In this document: positions 1,278-61,402 of the stretch, piece by piece | Layout of the letters: every line of letters begins with the position of its first letter | How positions within the stretch are numbered: position 1 is the stretch's first letter | Assembly: GCA_016293845.1 (NCBI GenBank) | Contig: JAEDDH010000010.1 | Coordinates: 4,104-68,103, forward strand | Origin: Bacteroidales bacterium | GTDB taxonomy: Bacteria; Bacteroidota; Bacteroidia; Bacteroidales; UBA3824 | Direction of reading: 5' to 3' | Length of the DNA: 64,000 bases | Made by a program: the position numbers and the translations under genes | Notes under the pieces: model-generated | Told to the model about the DNA's origin: nothing | The model's input: only the letters and a program-made list of their open reading frames with translations | Databases searched by the model: none

Positions 1278-3146
1278 TTACAAATTAATGCAAATTCCAC
1301 CCATAAAGGTTGCTTTGGGCATAGCGAATCCTGCGTAGGTTTGATACTCTTTGTTGAGGAGGTTTCCGCCCTTAACAAATAATTTGAGCCAAGGTAGAAG
1401 TTTGTAAGATACGTTGGCGTTGATAAGGTTGTAATCTTCTGTTTCGGCATTGTTTCCTGTGCTGATATACAATCCATAAATGCTCTGTTCGCTAATCTTT
1501 GCGGAGAATTTGCCATTAGTGTATTGCACAGCAAAATAGATTTTGTTTTCGGGTGCACCAGTAACGGGAGTGTCCATATCGAGCAACGAATAGTTTAAAT
1601 TAAATCTCCATGCGCCGTAAGTGTATGCTGCCGAAAGTTCACAACCTTTGTTTTCAAATTCGCCTGTGTTCATATTTATCTTGCCAGCTCCGTTGGTGCG
1701 GGGAACGGTGGTGATGAGGTTGTCACCTTTTATATAATAGATGTTGGCGCCAAAGTTGAATTTTCGGATTTTTTTGGTGTAAGATAGTTCGTAGTTGATC
1801 ATACGCTCAGGTTCGAGGTTTTCGTTTTGAGGCGGAAACATATACATCTCGCGGATAATTGGGTTGCGGAATCCTTTGGACACCAACAGTTTGATATTGT
1901 CGTCGGATGGAGTGTAAAACGATACTCCCGCCTGAGGAATAATTTCGGTGCCGGCTTGCGAATGGTGGTCGATTCTTACGCCCAAATCGGCAGAAAACCA
2001 CGATGTAATTTGTTGGTTGTAATCAATATAGCCTGCAATGTCGGTTTGGTTGTGGTCTTCTACAAGGTATTTTTTGTCGCCAGAGAAAAAGTTGTTCCAA
2101 GCCTCGCCGCCAAATGTCTGAAAATCTGCGCCCACAGTAAAGCGCGAACCGCTAAATGGCGAAAAGTTTTGATATGCAGTTGCTCCGGTAATAAAGTCGT
2201 CGTGCATATAAAGGTTGTCTTTTTCGGGCTGACCCCAAAGGTGTCCGTCGTTGATTTCGTGGTGTCCCCAATCGTAGAATAGGCGGATACATCCCGAAGT
2301 GTTTTTGTAATTGTTTGTTGCAGAAATGCTTGCAAGTCCGCGAATAATGTCGGCTTTGGTGTCGAAGAGCGGTGCGTCTTCGGGTCCGGGGTTGTTAAAT
2401 TCAAAGTAAGTAAGGTTGACATCGCCGTTGAGAGTCCAATTTTTGTTAATGTCGTAACCCACTTTGATAAAGTCTGAAATCTGCTCAAATGCAGAATTAA
2501 ATCGGTGCCCGTCGGTGCGTTGATAACTTGCACCAAACACAGCCGAAAATTTGCCTTTGCGTACGCGAGCCATTCCATTGCCTTCAAATGTGCCGTAACT
2601 TCCGCCCGAAAGCATAAAGTTGGTGTGCACTCCGTCGGTTTTGTCGGCGTTGCGGGTAACGATGTTGATAACGCCTGCCATAGCGTTTGAGCCATAAAGC
2701 AGCGACGACGGGCCGCGCAAAATCTCTACCTTGTCTGCCATAAAAGATTGGTATGCGTCGGGAACCGGGTGACCCATCAAACCGGCAAACTGTGGCTGAC
2801 CGTCGATAAGCACAAGCATTTGAGCACCATCGCCCACGCCGCGCACCTTGATTCCTCCGGCAGAGTTGGTAGAAACTCCATAACCTATCATGCCTCGCGA
2901 TGTGGCAAAAAGTCCGGGAGTCTCTTCTACGATAGATGGAAGCATAGAAATATTGTATCCCTCAGCAAGTTTTTCGTTGCTAATTTGAGTAATAGTGAGT
3001 GGCAGATAGCGCACGTCGGTGGCAGTGCGAGTGCCTGTTATCACCACCTCGGGATGGTAAACCATTCTTTCGATAATAGTGTCGCCCTGTGCAAAAGCAC
3101 CTTGTACGGCGCACATAGCGGCAATTGCTAAAAGTGATTTTTTCAT
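1278..3146 (-). CDS. TonB-dependent outer membrane receptor (plug + beta-barrel)
   Basis: ORF 1278..3182. I prefer the start at MKKSLLAIAAMCAVQGAFAQ (signal peptide, ATG at 3146). It has a plug-like N-terminus (VVITGTRT..., ILRGPSSLLYGSNAMAGVINIVT) and a C-terminal aromatic barrel end (...FMGGICINL). Confidence 0.85.
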   Translation of the reverse strand: MKKSLLAIAAMCAVQGAFAQGDTIIERMVYHPEVVITGTRTATDVRYLPLTITQISNEKLAEGYNISMLPSIVEETPGLFATSRGMIGYGVSTNSAGGIKVRGVGDGAQMLVLIDGQPQFAGLMGHPVPDAYQSFMADKVEILRGPSSLLYGSNAMAGVINIVTRNADKTDGVHTNFMLSGGSYGTFEGNGMARVRKGKFSAVFGASYQRTDGHRFNSAFEQISDFIKVGYDINKNWTLNGDVNLTYFEFNNPGPEDAPLFDTKADIIRGLASISATNNYKNTSGCIRLFYDWGHHEINDGHLWGQPEKDNLYMHDDFITGATAYQNFSPFSGSRFTVGADFQTFGGEAWNNFFSGDKKYLVEDHNQTDIAGYIDYNQQITSWFSADLGVRIDHHSQAGTEIIPQAGVSFYTPSDDNIKLLVSKGFRNPIIREMYMFPPQNENLEPERMINYELSYTKKIRKFNFGANIYYIKGDNLITTVPRTNGAGKINMNTGEFENKGCELSAAYTYGAWRFNLNYSLLDMDTPVTGAPENKIYFAVQYTNGKFSAKISEQSIYGLYISTGNNAETEDYNLINANVSYKLLPWLKLFVKGGNLLNKEYQTYAGFAMPKATFMGGICINL

Positions 3147-19408: not shown

Positions 19409-19574
19409 AATTATCTGTATATATGTAAGTTGGTTGATGTTGTGGTTTGCCTTTGCCTAAGCTGTTGTATGCTTACGGCGGTAAGGCAAATTTACAAATA
19501 TTTATGTATAAAACAAATATGAAGATTATTTTTTTTATTTTTTATCTTAATCGGCGTTGTTGCGAGCATTTTTA

Positions 19575-54252: not shown

Positions 54253-54675
54253 ATGGCGCGATATATGATTGACACCAACATCCTCTGTTTTATGATAGAG
54301 GAGGATGATAGGCTTTCAAAAGATGTTAAAGCCATAGTAACCGATTGTGAAAACACACTATTTGTTAGTGCCGAATCAGTTAAAGAACTTGTTGTTGCCC
54401 ATCGTAACAAAAATTTGTTAGCCAACCGATGGAAAACAGCCGATGAACTTGTGAACGCTATCAAGAAACAATATCGTTTTGTAATTCTTCCTGTTGATAT
54501 CAATACTATTCATAGTATGGCAAAACTCGAAATCAATGAGGCTGCCGACCATAAAGACCCGTCAGACCATCTTATTATTGCCCACGCTATAACTATGGGT
54601 ATGCCGTTGATTTCAAACGACAGAAAATTTCCTTTTTACAAAAGTCAGGGATTAGAACTTGTTACGAATTTTTAA
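54253..54675 (+). CDS. PIN-domain (VapC-like) toxin
   Basis: 140 aa. MIDTNIL (first acidic Asp), SAESVKEL (Glu), DPSDHLIIAHA (DP.DR.I.A) and ISNDRKF (last Asp). Confidence 0.8.
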   Translation: MARYMIDTNILCFMIEEDDRLSKDVKAIVTDCENTLFVSAESVKELVVAHRNKNLLANRWKTADELVNAIKKQYRFVILPVDINTIHSMAKLEINEAADHKDPSDHLIIAHAITMGMPLISNDRKFPFYKSQGLELVTNF

Positions 54676-56597: not shown

Positions 56598-56662
56598 CAA
56601 AAACATCAACGTATAATTTATGGCATAACAAAAAACATTAACATACGGCATTAACTATTATT

Positions 56663-56878
56663 CGCGTTCAAAACAAAAGCGTAGGAAACTGTTGATTTTG
56701 AAAATCGGATAACAGCGTTTGCGGAGTGTCATTGATACTCTTTCCACTAATCATTTGTTAATGCTCGCAACCATAACGGTGCGGGCTTACAAATTATCTA
56801 TGATTAGTGGACGGAGTTCATCCTACGCTCTCCGTGAACGCGAGTAGATGAAATAAGGCCTGCGCCTTTTTCTTTTTT
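56663..56878 (+). ncRNA. Structured RNA candidate A (unassigned family): nested helices + conserved apical hairpin + terminator
   Basis: P1 CGCGTTCA (56663-70) pairs with TGAACGCG (56835-42). P2 GCGTAGGA (56679-86) pairs with TCCTACGC (56821-28). P3 CCACTAATCAT (56744-54) pairs with ATGATTAGTGG (56800-10). The apical hairpin is GCTCGCA (56763-69) with TGCGGGC (56780-86). The terminator is AAGGC-CTGC-GCCTT plus a T-rich run (56855-56878). There is no ORF. Confidence 0.45.
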
Positions 56879-56918
56879 CTTTCGCGGTATTAGTTCTTGC
56901 TCTTTAATACAGCGAATT

Positions 56919-57146
56919 ATGCACATAGGGCATATCATAGAACAGGAGCTTCAAAAACGCGGCTGCACAAAAACGTGGCTCGCCAAGCAACTCTATTGTC
57001 ATCGTACAAATGTAGGAAACATTCTCAAACGTCAGAGCATCGACACCGAGCAACTATTGAAAATATCTGAGATTCTTGGCGTGGATTTTTTCGTGTATTA
57101 TGTAAATGAATATGAAGACCGTGAAAATAATTCTCGTTTGCGATAA
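56919..57146 (+). CDS. XRE-family helix-turn-helix protein
   Basis: 75 aa. KRGCTKTWLAKQLYCHRTNVGNILKRQSIDTEQLLKISEILGV has the HTH_3/HTH_26 pattern. Confidence 0.7.
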   Translation: MHIGHIIEQELQKRGCTKTWLAKQLYCHRTNVGNILKRQSIDTEQLLKISEILGVDFFVYYVNEYEDRENNSRLR

Positions 57147-57225
57147 TTATTTGCTACAAAATCCGTAGGATGGGTATTGAATAATGCTGTTATTTTGCGG
57201 TATAAAAAATTAAACTCCAACTAAT

Positions 57226-57854
57226 ATGAAAAAGAAAATAATTTTATTGGCAGCCGCTATTGCAGGATTGACGAGTATTGCATCGGCGCAAAAGACCACC
57301 ACTGTTCTTGAAGTAAACGTTACTGAGGCAAGAACTACCGATGCTGTAACAAGAGTTCACGCACGTCCCATAGTTTGTGACGTTAAAATGAAGACCTATC
57401 AACAAGGTGCCGATTGGTGCAGAGAAAGTGATTTTAATCTCATTGACAAATCAACCAACCGTTTTACAGATTTTTGGTTCTTGACAACAGAAGACCTCAA
57501 CGCCTTTATAAGCAACGATGGTAGAACCACAATGGACGAATTAACCGTTCAATTAAGAAGTTACGGAATGTTTCGTTCGCAGCAATACCACAAATGCGAT
57601 GTTGTGATTGCCCCGATTTTAACTGGCGTTCTGCATCGAATGATGAAAAGCAGAAGCGTGGTGCCCACTATGTGGTAACAATCAGCGGATACGCAGCTGA
57701 TTTTGTAAACTTCAAAAACGCATCCGACGAAGACCTCAACCTTATTATCAAAAACGACAACATAGGTAGCCGTGGATATGGTAGCAACGGTCTGATTCCT
57801 ATTATGTCTAATGCCAAGCCAACCGACTTTACCATTCACGGAACAACAGAATAA
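57226..57854 (+). CDS. Secreted/lipoprotein-like hypothetical protein, interrupted by a 1-nt frameshift within 57594-57678
   Basis: The signal peptide is MKKKIILLAAAIAGLTSIASAQ. ORF 57226..57678 ends in implausible sequence, while the overlapping frame (57594..57854) continues as FNWRSASNDEKQKRGAHYVVTISGYAADFVNFKN.... The likely slip is at the C4/T4 runs at 57611-57620. Confidence 0.55.
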
Positions 57855-57884
57855 ATTATATAACCCAATAACAATAGAAAAAAG

Positions 57885-58553
57885 ATGAAAAAGATATTTT
57901 TATTACTGACGGCACTTGTTTCGTTCGCCACAGTGTCAAATGCGCAGATTGTACGTTCAAAAAGCAGCAAAACCGTTACCACAACAGTTGAAAAAGAACC
58001 AACTGAAACTATAAAGTATATGAGGCTCGGACTTAACTTGATGAAAATCGGCGGCGATGGCGTTTCTGATGCGACAAAAAACTATATGAAATCAAACCTT
58101 GGTTACCAAATAATCTGGGGTTTTGAAAAACCTCTCGGTCCACTTTTCTGGGGAATGGAATATGGTCTCAGTTCGCGTGGCTACAAATTAGAATTTGGCA
58201 ATGAGGATGAAAAACTGTTTGTCCACAGTGGTATTTTTTCTCCTTTTAATCTTGGCTACAAATATGGAATAACCGACGAATTGGCAGTTGAAGGGCACGT
58301 AGGCGCATACATAAGCGGTGACTATTTTGGTAAATACAAAGAAACTGATGAAGATGGAGAATCCTATGAAGCATCAATTTATGACTTTGATGATTGGTAG
58401 TATCTTGATGCAGGTATGCAGTTCGGTTTTGGTTTGTGGTATAACCAAATTGGCATTGACTTTCTCATCCAAAAAGGATTTATAAATATGTTTGAAGATG
58501 TTAAATTTCACACCTCCAATTTTATGATTCGTTTTGGAGTTGCATTCTTCTTT
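57885..58553 (+). pseudogene. Small OM beta-barrel protein (OMP_b-brl-like) with an in-frame TAG at 58398-58400
   Basis: The signal peptide is MKKIFLLLTALVSFATVSNAQ. The reading ...SIYDFDDW*YLDAGMQFGFGLWYNQIGIDF...FMIRFGVAF continues in the same frame across the TAG and ends with a typical barrel terminus (RFGVAF). Confidence 0.6.
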
Positions 58554-58649
58554 TCTACTGCATTTCGTGTAGCCGACAAACACGTGTATGTAAACCAAAC
58601 AGATTTGAAAGCAATTCCGCAGATTTCCATTACTAAGAAAGAGATTGGA

Positions 58650-59003
58650 ATGGAAAAATATGCTGAATTAAAAAAAACTTCCGACAAGGCAATAGTTGAC
58701 GAGTTTAACGTTTTGAATAACGATTTGATGCAAGAAATATGCGACTTTATCGGTTCCAACACTCCTGAGTCAATGATAACAAATTGGGATAATATTGTAT
58801 CAAAACGTGTTACTGAGGGTATGACTATGACCGAGACCAAACTTGCTTTGGGACCTCCTCAATCTGAAGTGGAAGGTAACACAGAAACACAATGGATATA
58901 CGGTTTATCGCTGATTGTTTATTTTGATGACGGTAAAGATTATAATCAAGCAACCAAAACTTTTGTAAAGAGAGATAAAAAAGTTACAAGAATTTTGAGA
59001 TAG
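58650..59003 (+). CDS. Hypothetical protein with BamE/SmpA_OmlA-like C-terminal pattern
   Basis: An internal ATG at 58650 is preceded by the purine-rich AAGAAAGAG. VTEGMTMTETKLALGPPQSEVEGNTETQWIYG resembles the SmpA/OmlA motif. It lies in the same open frame as the upstream barrel, with no intervening stop. Confidence 0.35.
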   Translation: MEKYAELKKTSDKAIVDEFNVLNNDLMQEICDFIGSNTPESMITNWDNIVSKRVTEGMTMTETKLALGPPQSEVEGNTETQWIYGLSLIVYFDDGKDYNQATKTFVKRDKKVTRILR

Positions 59004-59089
59004 TTTTCAGCACAATATTAATGAGCACTTTTTTCACGTAATTTTGGGGACGGATTATTTATTAATTCGCTCGTTTTTTTATAATTCTG

Positions 59090-60244
59090 TTATTTTTTCA
59101 CAATCTCATACCTTTTGTGAAAATACATAAACAGCAAGCACCCCGTTATTTCAAAAGGAATACCCCACGCGGCAGAGACGTTTTCGGCGCAGCCTGCAAG
59201 TATAGGCAGTCCGCCCAAGAACGCTCCTGCCGCGTTTCCTACATTAAATGCCACCTGCACAAGCGCACCGCCGAGTTTTTCACCGCCCTTGCCGTGCTTG
59301 ATGATGAGAAATTGCTGCGGCGACGATAGCGCAAACAAACAGAATGTGCTCATAAACATCATCGCCACCATTATCCACGGATTGGCTCCAAATATCAGTA
59401 TCACAGTGAGAATCACAGCCGTAGAGCCTTGAATAATACCAGCCACAAGTCCCATAGGATAATGGTCGCAAATCTTGCCCGAAATCAAGTTGCCCGCCAC
59501 CATACCTGCACCTGCCGTTACCATAAGTATGGGCAAGGTGTTTTCTGAAAAACCTGCCACATTGGTGAGTATCGGGTTGATATACGAATACATACAGAAT
59601 ATTCCGCAATTGCCTGTAAACGTGGCGAATATCACAAGCCACGGCGCAAGGTGTTTTAAGAATTTAAAACGGTCGCGCACACGCTGTGTAATCTCGTTTT
59701 CTACATCGGGAACAAACATCTTGATGCCGATACCCGTTACGAGAGCCGCCGCAGCCACCAACATAAATATAGTGCGCCACGAAAAATTGTTGCTCAAAAA
59801 CGTTCCCACAGGCACTCCCAGCAGGTTTGCTACCGTCATACCCGACACCATAATGGCAATAGCGGTAGATTCTTTGCCCTTTCCTCCAAGTTTAGAGGCA
59901 ATGATGGTTCCTATTCCGAAATACGCCCCGTGAGGCAGTCCCGAAATAAAACGACAAGCCATAAGTGCGTAATAGTTAGGAGCAAACGCTGCCAAAATGT
60001 TTCCTGTAAGCATCAGAACCGCCAAAAAAATCAGCACGCTTTTTAGCCTGTATTTTTCTACCGACAACAGAATCACAGGAGCACCGAAACTTACGCCAAG
60101 GGCATACGCCGAAATAAGGTGTGCCGCCTCGGGAATAGAGATGTTCAAATCATTAGCCACAAACGACAATATTCCCGGCATCACAAACTCAGCCATTCCA
60201 AGAACAAACGTACCAAGGGATAAGGCAATAAGAGAGGTTTTCAT
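59090..60244 (-). CDS. MFS transporter (DHA1-like, 12 TM)
   Basis: 384 aa with twelve hydrophobic segments. An MFS loop 2-3-like motif lies near MACRFISGLPHGAYFG. Confidence 0.85.
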   Translation of the reverse strand: MKTSLIALSLGTFVLGMAEFVMPGILSFVANDLNISIPEAAHLISAYALGVSFGAPVILLSVEKYRLKSVLIFLAVLMLTGNILAAFAPNYYALMACRFISGLPHGAYFGIGTIIASKLGGKGKESTAIAIMVSGMTVANLLGVPVGTFLSNNFSWRTIFMLVAAAALVTGIGIKMFVPDVENEITQRVRDRFKFLKHLAPWLVIFATFTGNCGIFCMYSYINPILTNVAGFSENTLPILMVTAGAGMVAGNLISGKICDHYPMGLVAGIIQGSTAVILTVILIFGANPWIMVAMMFMSTFCLFALSSPQQFLIIKHGKGGEKLGGALVQVAFNVGNAAGAFLGGLPILAGCAENVSAAWGIPFEITGCLLFMYFHKRYEIVKK

Positions 60245-60475
60245 TGTTAAATCTACTAATTAAAAGCCTGATAGCATCTTTAATTTTGACGGCAAAAGTA
60301 GTTATTTTTTGCTTGATAACGAACGATTGCTAATTTATCTCTTTATTAAGATATATTATATTAAAAATCAATGCTATAATTAAATTTTGAAAAAAAATAT
60401 CAATAAAATAACAAAAAACTTGACTGTGAATCATTATTATCCGTATATTGCAACAATTCAGAAATTGAAATCGAA

Positions 60476-60648
60476 AGAGCGTTTGCTTGGGCTGACTTCC
60501 TGAAATACGACCAAAATTTATCAGTTTAATTGTCAGCACTTGCGAATGCTCGCATCCCTATAAAGGGTGTGGGCTTACTTTGTAGTAATTATTGGGCTTT
60601 GGTCGGCCTTTCAGGAAACTATAAAGATGCACGCATCCTTTCTTTTTT
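60476..60648 (+). ncRNA. Structured RNA candidate B, paralog of element A
   Basis: P1 TTCCTGAAA (60497-505) pairs with TTTCAGGAA (60609-17). P2 CGACCAAA (60508-15) pairs with TTTGGTCG (60598-605). The apical hairpin is GCTCGCA (60548-54), CCCT-ATAA-AGGG, TGTGGGC (60568-74). GATG-CACG-CATC plus a T-rich run lies at 60626-48. It shares AGCGTTTGC and AATGCTCGCA...TGYGGGCTTAC with element A. Confidence 0.45.
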
Positions 60649-60690
60649 AGTTTCTATTTAAAATTATTGTTTAACTAAAAAAGAGAAACT

Positions 60691-61110
60691 ATGGCAAACA
60701 ATGACGATTTTTCCAGTGATTTGTGGAACTTAACTGCCGCTGCTGCGACTCTTGTTCATCCTGTTGCAGGTGTGGCTGTGAAAGGAATCCAATTTATGTA
60801 TAAGCATTTTTCCAGTAGCGACTTTGATGGGAACATTCCAAAAGACCGTATCAGAAACTACCAAGAGCCTGTTCTATCGAAACGAAGACTCGCGGAGATA
60901 TCGAAAGCAAACAAAGTACCCTCTGCAACAGAAGTGTACGCTCGAAAAGAAATGTTACTAGACTCTTACAGCATTACACTCACCTATGGAATTAACGGAG
61001 AACCATTTCCGCCTATGCGGAATAATTTTGTTGTTATTATATCAAAAGAATTAAATAGCGACATTGACTCACTGTTTGGTAATGACGAACTGATAATCAT
61101 AAAAAAATAA
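60691..61110 (+). CDS. Hypothetical protein (no recognisable domain)
   Basis: 139 aa. It starts 43 nt after RNA element B, and the ACP-like gene follows 28 nt downstream. Confidence 0.5.
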   Translation: MANNDDFSSDLWNLTAAAATLVHPVAGVAVKGIQFMYKHFSSSDFDGNIPKDRIRNYQEPVLSKRRLAEISKANKVPSATEVYARKEMLLDSYSITLTYGINGEPFPPMRNNFVVIISKELNSDIDSLFGNDELIIIKK

Positions 61111-61138: not shown

Positions 61139-61402
61139 ATGTCAGATATTAAGAACAAAGTAAAAGAGATTGTTGTCAATCAATTAGGAGTTGACGAGGC
61201 AGAAGTAACAGACGCAGCAAGTTTTACAAATGACTTGGGTGCTGACTGTTTAGATACTGTCGAGTTAGTGATGCAATTCGAAAAGGAGTTTAATATATAT
61301 GCTCCTGATACTGTATGGGAAAGACTCGCCACTGTCGGAGAAGTGGTGGATTATATCGAACGGCAACTGGCACCTGAGGTTAGAGATGAAGGATTTTTGT
61401 AG
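61139..61402 (+). CDS. Acyl carrier protein paralog with Cys in place of the phosphopantetheine-attachment Ser
   Basis: 87 aa. [44 protein letters not shown] aligns with the AcpP core, in which the motif is LGADSLDTVEL. The codon at 61247-61249 is TGT. Confidence 0.8.

Follow-up and report, generated by a model that had tools for sequence, protein, structure and literature searches.

The 64,000-nucleotide (nt) stretch of DNA analysed here, hereafter the window, comes from a Bacteroidales bacterium of GTDB lineage UBA3824 (contig JAEDDH010000010.1, assembly GCA_016293845.1) and carries two intergenic elements, A and B, which an original prediction made from the letters alone had taken for copies of one RNA motif. 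Element B, at 60456-60648 on the plus strand, encodes a highly structured RNA of about 190 nt and is followed by genes for a 139-aa orphan protein and for a protein resembling acyl carrier proteins (ACPs); element A precedes a helix-turn-helix (HTH) gene (Table 1). The observation is confirmed and extended here: element B is a real structured RNA, and its family is absent from Rfam. We think it probable, from its sequence and that of its relatives, that element B acts in cis as the leader of an undescribed rumen/gut Bacteroidales family, working by transcription attenuation with a riboswitch-like design.

Table 1. Features of element B, element A and the adjoining genes, in window coordinates
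Feature	Position	Strand	Description
Element A	56630..56880 (approx.)	+	Paralogous leader, second subtype; AGCGTTTGC at 5' side; precedes HTH gene 56919-57146
Putative promoter of element B	60420..60451	+	TTGACT (-33-like TTG) and TATATTGC (-7-like, Bacteroidetes TAnnTTTG type)
Stem I 5' strand	60477..60496	+	S1a GAGCGTTTGC and S1b GGGCTGAC; contains AGCGTTTGC; attenuator region 1; from RNAalifold on MAFFT
Pa 5' strand	60497..60505	+	TTCCTGAAA; directly abuts the 3' end of the Stem I 5' strand
Pb 5' strand	60508..60515	+	CGACCAAA; nearly invariant
Pc 5' strand	60527..60531	+	TAATT; abuts Stem I 3' strand
Stem I 3' strand	60532..60551	+	GTCAGCAC..GCGAATGCTC; attenuator region 2; GCTC common with H
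Core hairpin H	60548..60574	+	GCTCGCATCC / GGGTGTGGGC, loop CTATAAA; candidate antiterminator, regions 2:3
Terminator helix 5' strand	60562..60585	+	AAAGGGTGTGGGC (H 3' strand, region 3) and CTTTGTAG (e); from RNAalifold consensus
Pc 3' strand	60587..60591	+	AATTA; from pair counts
Pb 3' strand	60598..60605	+	TTTGGTCG; flanked by conserved GGGC and GCC
Pa 3' strand	60609..60617	+	TTTCAGGAA
Terminator helix 3' strand and U-run	60619..60648	+	CTATAAAG and ATGCACGCATCCTTT (region 4), U-run CTTTCTTTTTT
A-rich spacer to start codon	60649..60690	+	Semi-conserved TGTTTAAC at 60668-60675
139-aa orphan protein gene	60691-61110	+	Only two homologous clusters; no Pfam family
ACP-like protein gene	61139-61402	+	Cys replaces the phosphopantetheine-attachment Ser

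Element B encodes a strand-specific RNA fold

A promoter scan upstream of element B found TTGACT-18-TATATT (10/12). The consensus for Bacteroides promoters is -33 TTG / -7 TAnnTTTG, and a TAnnTTTG-like box stands at the same spacing in every relative, 22-31 nt upstream of GAAAG; in two loci from other genomes (L069 and L072; L numbers denote fetched loci) the box is a perfect TAAATTTG, giving the canonical TTTG-N20-TAAATTTG. Transcription of element B would start near 60456. At the other end the T-run stops at 60648, 42 nt before the ATG at 60691. Compared with shuffled sequences element B folds with z = -3.9, and its fold is 15 kcal/mol more stable than that of the reverse complement. G-U pairs, which would be A-C on the opposite strand, occupy 77 of the 652 paired alignment cells; these and the strand asymmetry together indicate that the pairing is strand-specific and belongs to the RNA level. 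Among strains of the window's species, eight single-nucleotide polymorphisms (SNPs) fall in 60401-60459 and none in 60460-60700; the sole SNP recorded within the RNA, G60552A in L004, converts a G-U pair of H to A-U.

From 5' to 3', B-type RNAs consist of segment a (GAGCGUUYG..GGCUGAC), b (the Pa 5' strand), c (CGACCAA), d (the Pc 5' strand), a' (GUCAGCAC..GCGAAUGCUC) and the hairpin H, followed by e (CUUYRUAG), d' (the Pc 3' strand), c' (UUGGUCG), b' (the Pa 3' strand), e' (YUAURRAG) and a pre-U segment (RGCACGCAYCC) that leads into UUUCUUUUUU. RNAalifold, unaided, recovered Stem I (~20 bp) and a long helix ending at the U-run, in which the H 3' strand and e pair with e' and the pre-U segment; we refer to the latter as the terminator helix. 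GGGC and GCC around Pb, UUAC and GUCAGCAC are conserved as unpaired nucleotides. The spacers that follow measure 23-61 nt, and most contain TGTTNAAC-like motifs and A-rich tracts.

The nested 9-bp and 8-bp helices of the original prediction are recovered here as Pa and Pb, and its hairpin GCTCGCA..TGTGGGC as H. These are real but amount to half of the picture, the pairings of Stem I and of the terminator helix having been overlooked. The predicted T-run is likewise present, but the short hairpin placed before it, GATGCACGCATC, is a weak one of -2.1 kcal/mol that relatives do not conserve (0 to -2.8 kcal/mol), one of them having lost it through a single substitution. The conserved partner of the segment before the T-run is the 3' strand of the core hairpin, which gives the long-range terminator helix a duplex energy of -23 to -31 kcal/mol. 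A candidate helix Pd (GCGAA/UUUGU, flanking H) was rejected: a G-to-A change in L012 and L019 breaks it and fits Pe, the pairing of e with e', which was preferred.

Searches of the window with known families gave no counterpart. Rfam 15 had no match in the whole window at the gathering threshold, and with Rfam in E-value mode on element B, element A and the loci of six relatives only sub-threshold chance matches overlapped the element. One of these, to the preQ1-II riboswitch, spans the U-run and spacer at 60609-60693 (+); it reaches 26.2 bits (E = 0.02) where the gathering score is 47, and was judged to be chance, its alignment consisting of U/A-rich stretches with broken pairs. A scan for tRNA and tmRNA found none, and a literature search for a described RNA motif of rumen Bacteroidales returned nothing relevant.

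Relatives occur in rumen and gut Bacteroidales

Relatives were collected by one exact-pattern scan each of genome and metagenome collections with the core AATGCTCGCA-N-TGYGGGCTTAC (31 nt), a pattern that fixes the core in the sequences it selects. True relatives found in this way came only from rumen/gut Bacteroidales metagenome-assembled genomes (MAGs) and metagenomes (goat, yak, red deer). They comprise the B-type loci L012, L015, L019, L021, L022, L039, L040, L050 and L068, together with near-identical orthologues of B (L014, L041) and of A (L013, L060). Three more B-type leaders (L069, L072, L074) were reached independently of the RNA pattern, through homologues of a 236-aa downstream protein; they score 113-119 bits with the model while not matching the pattern (GCTCACA, GGGCTAC), and keep all helices with new sequences. 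Three more A-type variants (L078/L082, L084, L086) were found by way of homologues of the HTH gene behind A. The sample holds ~15 distinct sequences of the B type and 5 of the A type, all belonging to a narrow clade.

There are at least two copies per genome, namely A and B in the window and L021 and L022 in one MAG. Within the window nhmmer returned only A and B and no third copy, and a search of the window together with 0.5 Mb of fetched loci by nhmmer and the covariance model yielded no further copies; minus-strand self-matches in this search merely reflected the palindromic nature of Stem I. A third occurrence of AATGCTCGCA at 19561 (-) proved to be unrelated sequence. Blastn against plasmids and phages gave 0 matches, and all five matches in a scan of viral contigs were chance hits in coding DNA. 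Pattern matches in Acidobacteria, Undibacterium and archaea were unrelated, as were ~25 soil-metagenome contigs that share the 31-nt pattern by chance. Those soil contigs (L028-L031, L033, L035-L037, L042-L049, L052-L054, L057, L061, L065, L067) are themselves well conserved over ~250 nt around CAATGCTCGCAGCTCTTCCTGATTCTGMTGTGGGCTTAC. Two of the true relatives have features of their own. L074:445-745 has a promoter region and spacer that almost match those of element B and an RNA body of the divergent L069/L072 lineage, a mosaic that suggests recombination between leader copies. L050 carries at 1763-1808 (+), ~230 nt upstream of its leader and not on it, the sole Rfam match that exceeds a gathering score, to Acido-Lenti-1 (RF01687) with 42.7 bits (gathering score 37), and a Bacteroidales rumen contig lies outside the phyla for which that motif was named.

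Six helices are backed by covariation

Base pairing was assessed with RNAalifold on ordinary MAFFT alignments, Pa, Pb and Pc being added as pseudoknots, and pairs were counted on the same alignments, which had not been fitted to the structure. Over the six helices, 95.9% of cells were paired in the alignment of 11 sequences and 91.9% in that of 15, compared with 38-43% and 37-43%, respectively, when partners were slid. Pairs changed on both sides numbered 15 and 16, and cells changed on both sides 42 and 58; none of 500 shuffles of either alignment reached the observed values for any of five measures. All six helices are therefore backed by covariation, and the family has ~60 conserved base pairs.

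Most of the double changes are carried by Pa and Pc. Compensatory double changes occur at 6-7 of the 9 pairs of Pa. Strands of Pa form duplexes averaging -9.8 kcal/mol with their own partner but only -2.6 kcal/mol with partners taken from other sequences, the own partner being best in 9 of 10. In Pc all five pairs have double changes, with at least seven sequence versions. Pb varies little, with an A-U to U-A change in L040 and L068 (GUCCAA/UUGGAC). Stem I is 99-100% paired and varies while remaining paired at 12-77 (UG/CG/UA), 14-75 (CG/UA/UG) and 20-69 (GC in 11, AU in 4 sequences), the GC/AU change having arisen independently in two clades. Of the 23 pairs of the terminator helix (helix 6), 12 vary on one side only, with pairing kept (C/U opposite G, G/A opposite U); in the L074 clade, U-A to C-G and A-U to U-A changes can be read directly in Pe. 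In H 100% of cells are paired, and pair 85-106 is GC in six sequences, GU in five and AU in four.

These compensatory changes in relatives from other genomes, the G-U cells and the strand asymmetry support the earlier suggestion of a conserved RNA fold over a DNA repeat, and the many-copy mobile repeat lacking covariation, which had been named as the outcome that would refute it, was not seen: plasmid and phage matches are nil and those in viral contigs are chance.

Overlapping pairings form an attenuator layout

GCUC is common to Stem I, where it pairs with GAGC, and to H, where it pairs with GGGC, and GGGUGYGGGC is common to H and the terminator helix. The overlapping pairings thus reproduce the 1:2 / 2:3 / 3:4 layout of an attenuator, with strands shared at both steps; Stem I and the terminator helix have strong covariation, H weak. 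The same strands are those conserved between the two elements. As first noted from the sequence, A and B have the strings AGCGTTTGC, AATGCTCGCA and TGYGGGCTTAC in common and in the same order (A: 56714, 56760, 56780; B: 60478, 60545, 60568), and a G-C pair in the hairpin of A is G-U in B. Singly, these short strings are not rarer than chance in the window; it is their collinear co-occurrence that counts. Despite divergence elsewhere, all three are strands of the attenuator.

The 3' part has the anatomy of a leader with an intrinsic terminator. The end of the 23-pair helix coincides with the U-run CUUUCUUUUUU in 15/15 sequences, and at 12/12 loci a co-oriented open reading frame (ORF) starts 23-61 nt past the U-run, a distance that leaves no space for a separate -33/-7 promoter and untranslated region (UTR).

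We propose that element B is the 5' leader of the mRNA of the following genes, transcribed from the Bacteroidetes-type promoter. Regions 1:2 would form Stem I (GAGCGUUUGC..GGGCUGAC with GUCAGCAC..GCGAAUGCUC), regions 2:3 hairpin H (GCUCGCAUCC with GGGUGUGGGC), and regions 3:4 the long helix (AAAGGGUGUGGGC..CUUUGUAG with CUAUAAAG..GCACGCAUCCUUU) that ends at the U-run as a putative intrinsic terminator. While Stem I holds GCUC, H would be incomplete and its 3' strand free for the terminator, so that transcription would stop at about 60645-60648; with Stem I open, H would sequester the terminator 5' strand and polymerase would read through into the ORF at 60691. Candidate signals are a small ligand, a protein, an RNA and the speed of the polymerase. 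This scheme builds on features that are directly observed (the helices and their covariation, the sharing of strands, the U-run, and the constant co-orientation and closeness of the ORF), from which we infer transcription of element B, termination by the 3:4 helix and conditional readthrough.

The loops of Stem I and of the terminator helix (~35 nt each) are mutually complementary over Pa, Pb and Pc, and two arrangements can be envisaged: an extended rod with H, which would be the readthrough fold, and two hairpins locked around a formally perfect four-way junction, which would be the terminating fold. When the Stem I 5' strand was kept unpaired, RNAfold gave the fold of the original prediction, here the readthrough fold, as a rod of Pa-Pb-Pc around H at -36 to -51 kcal/mol, and the fold with Stem I and terminator, constrained in the first 11 sequences, reached -53 to -64 kcal/mol; the latter was the unconstrained minimum-energy fold of the L074 clade, at -55 to -58 kcal/mol. 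In an equilibrium calculation on transcript prefixes, the minimum-energy fold of the growing transcript passed from Stem I to the rod with H once the Pa 3' strand was made (rod in 8/10, H in 9/10), and then to Stem I with the terminator once region 4 was made. In this model the staged folds are the behaviour of a kinetically decided switch.

Where Stem I, Pa, Pe and Pc meet, the linkers measure 0, 1, 1 and 0 nt throughout, the exception being 2 nt in L039. In formal terms this is a perfect four-way junction, with Pb connecting its Pa and Pc arms. Members of the L074 clade have a Stem I and a Pe longer by 2-3 bp, and a Pa and a Pc shorter to match. Both features favour a single fold. The loop-loop helices may lock both hairpins into one pseudoknotted fold, which nearest-neighbour folding programmes cannot score, or may alternate with them. 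Under either fold, the competition of H with Stem I and the terminator is likely to be the decision point.

Weighing attenuation against other explanations

Several observations count against a two-state attenuator. By nearest-neighbour energies, calculated for 13 sequences, the terminator fold is the stabler of the two by 9-21 kcal/mol in 12 and by ~3 kcal/mol in L040, so that termination might be invariable. At no stage of transcript growth does the L074 clade have the readthrough fold at minimum energy, yet Pa, Pb and Pc are kept there, a pattern that fits a single pseudoknotted fold better than a two-state switch. H has only one covarying pair (GC/GU/AU), a value reached by 44 of 500 shuffles, which is weak because the search pattern fixed its 5' strand in 12 of the 15 sequences. 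L012 has lost Pa. The ~15 distinct sequences belong to a narrow clade, 12 of them chosen by the pattern that fixes the core, and the downstream genes have no common function that would indicate a ligand. Finally, transcription start, 3' end and readthrough are each deduced from sequence, the 3' end being placed at the U-run. The L012 leader (L012:1504-1672 (-), the same as L032 and L066) has a duplex energy of -0.3 kcal/mol for its own Pa, while its other helices are intact and its close relative L019 keeps Pa; it may be a locked or decaying copy.

Part of this evidence would suit a stand-alone small RNA (sRNA), acting in trans or binding protein, in which the 3:4 helix is merely the RNA's own terminator, all helices belong to one pseudoknotted fold, and the downstream genes are reached by leaky readthrough or are unrelated. 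An own promoter, a strong terminator-type helix and at least two copies per genome would be natural for such an RNA; Stem I plus terminator is the minimum-energy fold in 13 of 14 sequences folded, and one four-way junction would account for the constant 0/1/1/0-nt linkers and for the compensating helix lengths of the L074 clade. We nevertheless hold it to be unlikely: 12/12 copies are co-oriented with an ORF 23-61 nt away that has no room for its own promoter, and no target or seed region was identified. A natural B-type deletion (L071:911-1060) points the same way. Some 145 nt are gone, from GCTCACA to the end of the spacer, among them H, the terminator helix and the U-run; the promoter and Stem I remain, and the ORF follows directly behind Stem I. 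Most of the RNA has been discarded and its promoter and gene retained. In addition, the linker GCAUYCC stays complementary to GGG through a G-C/G-U/A-U series, which a mere linker would not need.

A constitutive 5'-UTR module that travels with a strong promoter and takes no decision, providing stability, insulation or enhanced translation, with U- and A-rich tracts that serve ribosome loading in Shine-Dalgarno-poor Bacteroidetes, would account for the retention of promoter, leader and A-rich spacer as one cassette before unrelated genes, and for L074, where promoter and spacer of B are joined to a divergent RNA body. We consider it improbable, since a helix of ~20 bp that ends exactly at CUUUCUUUUUU in 15/15 sequences is the anatomy of an intrinsic terminator and a simple stabiliser needs neither ~60 conserved bp nor strands common to competing helices. 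The inverted repeats might also act at the DNA level, as a cassette recombination site of the integron attC or rAID-1 type, an invertible segment or the end of a mobile element. Copies do lie in variable accessory regions near toxin-antitoxin, Abi, AAA-ATPase and transposase-fragment genes, gene content between A and B varies by strain, the A module is absent in L014, and the repetitive intergenic sequences of rAID-1 clusters, described as reminiscent of integrons, offer a precedent (bioRxiv 10.1101/471110). All the same, this explanation is very hard to reconcile with strand-specific pairing (the 77 G-U cells and 15 kcal/mol asymmetry), with arms that differ around a conserved interior, the reverse of a recombinase site, or with a unit that carries its own promoter and terminator; there is no recombinase gene beside A or B or in the fetched flanks, and no plasmid, phage or viral-contig match.

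Attenuation in cis thus remains the reading we favour, and it agrees with one of the two roles first suggested from the sequence, a shared cis-regulatory leader or a family of sRNAs. Going further, we suggest tentatively, and with more doubt than conviction, that these leaders form a new class of ligand- or factor-sensing riboswitch-like RNAs of uncultured rumen/gut Bacteroidales through which one signal would reach unrelated genes of accessory islands (secreted proteins, lipoproteins, an HTH regulator, a Ser-less ACP fusion), the sensing fold being of unusual topology, two long hairpins whose 35-nt loops pair through three helices and close into a ring at a perfect four-way junction.

Downstream genes, element A and their accessory setting

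The gene at 60691 had been labelled a DUF (domain of unknown function) gene, but its product belongs to no Pfam family. ACPs carry a phosphopantetheine-attachment Ser at the site where the ACP-like protein of the window has Cys (GADCLDT) and its orthologues Gly (GADGLDT). In L041, L069, L072 and L074 the orphan and the ACP-like domain are fused as one 236-aa protein. Because the Ser is absent and the two are found fused, the ACP-like protein is probably the partner domain of the orphan and not a carrier protein. The other leaders precede unrelated products: signal-peptide proteins or lipoproteins of 204-729 aa, cytoplasmic proteins of 176-191 aa, and an Xre-type HTH protein behind A. Pfam and PADLOC searches of the downstream proteins returned no shared family, only scattered weak matches (DnaJ-type CxxCxGxG, Sel1, caspase-like).

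Element A has its hairpin H at 56763-56786. A U-run comes after its terminator-type pairing, GGTGCGGGCTT / AAGGCCTGCGCC, and immediately before that run the duplex of GGUGCGGGCUU with AAGGCCUGCGCC has an energy of -27 kcal/mol. Compared with shuffles its fold (z = -7.4) is stronger than that of B. With the relatives obtained through HTH homologues, eight pairs have double changes among five A-type sequences. The proposed kinship of A and B accordingly extends to the central switch region, which they have in common, but not to the outer architecture, which in A is a long covarying rod unlike that of B.

Strains of one species differ in the genes between A and B (window 56919-60244; the comparison covered L001-L009, L014 and L087), which comprise the HTH gene and then 2-4 small signal-peptide or outer-membrane beta-barrel-like proteins. 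L014 lacks the whole module of A, HTH and lipoprotein genes, with Dabb abutting a major facilitator superfamily (MFS) gene. In L082 the same module of A-type leader, HTH, 163/191/151-aa proteins and DUF6175 stands after serS, and in L086 a related module follows a Na+/H+ antiporter gene. Being strain-variable and found at different sites, the A and HTH module appears mobile or island-like. More generally, the neighbourhoods of the leaders are accessory regions with toxin-antitoxin, Abi, AAA-ATPase and transposase-fragment genes. Toxin-antitoxin genes adjoin the leaders in the window (54253-54675 (+), a PIN toxin with a small upstream ORF) and in relatives (HigB/HTH and RelE pairs in L011, L069, L071 and L074), and their recurrence is consistent with an accessory-island setting.

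Comparison with known systems

The B-type RNA closely resembles trp-type attenuators and the platforms of OFF riboswitches (purine, SAM-I, TPP): four collinear overlapping segments, a 3:4 helix followed by a U-run, a 5' helix that would decide whether the antiterminator strand is free, and an ORF just downstream on the same strand. It differs from them in having no conserved leader peptide and no match to an Rfam aptamer, and in preceding unrelated accessory genes instead of one pathway. A leader-peptide attenuator was rejected on these grounds: the sole recurrent AUG (in AAUGCUCGCA) opens a frame of 5 codons in B and of ~25-29 in L012, L015 and A, and frame and stop shift with loop indels. 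A T-box leader was also rejected, there being no match to RF00230 even at E <= 10 and no link of the downstream genes to amino-acid metabolism; the ACCA/UGGU of Pb is a resemblance only.

In gene context, and in that alone, the family recalls the c-di-GMP-I (GEMM) and other second-messenger riboswitches, which occur in several copies per genome before diverse, often secreted or uncharacterised proteins; it has no sequence or structure match to them in Rfam. With multi-copy sRNA families of Bacteroides and 6S-like rods it has in common a putative promoter and terminator of its own, a length of ~190 nt, paralogues and, in A, a rod-like fold, but among Rfam families, to which this comparison was confined, no sRNA matched, and the coupling to a downstream ORF is strict. 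6S RNA itself was rejected, RF00013 giving no match to an element that is multi-copy and ORF-coupled. The attC and rAID-1 repeats are likewise structured, repeated intergenic elements among variable small genes, in accessory islands of Bacteroidales; the leaders, in contrast, are strand-specific at the RNA level, much larger and more conserved, carry promoter and terminator features and lack a recombinase. An integron attC or rAID site was rejected, with no tyrosine recombinase nearby and strand-specific pairing. The omega RNAs of TnpB/IscB, IS110 bridge RNAs and retron non-coding RNAs were rejected too, since the flanks in the window and more than 20 loci contain no cognate nuclease, recombinase or reverse transcriptase, and so was a guide-RNA reading, the variable segments being complementary to each other and not free guides.

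The class of mechanism is known; neither Rfam 15 nor the literature searched describes the family, its taxonomic niche, its gene association or its interlocked-loop architecture. Bacteroidota have few known cis-regulatory RNAs, and hardly any of these come from the uncultured rumen Bacteroidales, the dominant degraders of fibre. With ~60 conserved bp, clear compensatory evolution and no Rfam counterpart, the family falls within the quality range of published orphan riboswitch candidates. Given that the genes are unrelated accessory and secreted ones in variable islands, a metabolic end product seems a less likely signal than a protein factor or a signal of a global or second-messenger-like kind. 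As a portable expression module, the cassette of promoter, leader and spacer could mark a so far invisible regulon in metagenomes.

The closest structural parallels are RNAs with loop-loop contacts (L5-L13 of cobalamin and L2-L3 of lysine riboswitches, RNA I/RNA II of ColE1), in which two hairpin loops pair and the contact is coupled to an expression platform, as proposed here. Unlike in those kissing RNAs, the contact in the B-type family consists of three helices with ~20-25 bp, joined to both stems by linkers of zero or one nt and formally closed at a four-way junction. We know of no described natural RNA with such a closed arrangement of interlocked loops, and the fold is of structural interest in itself.

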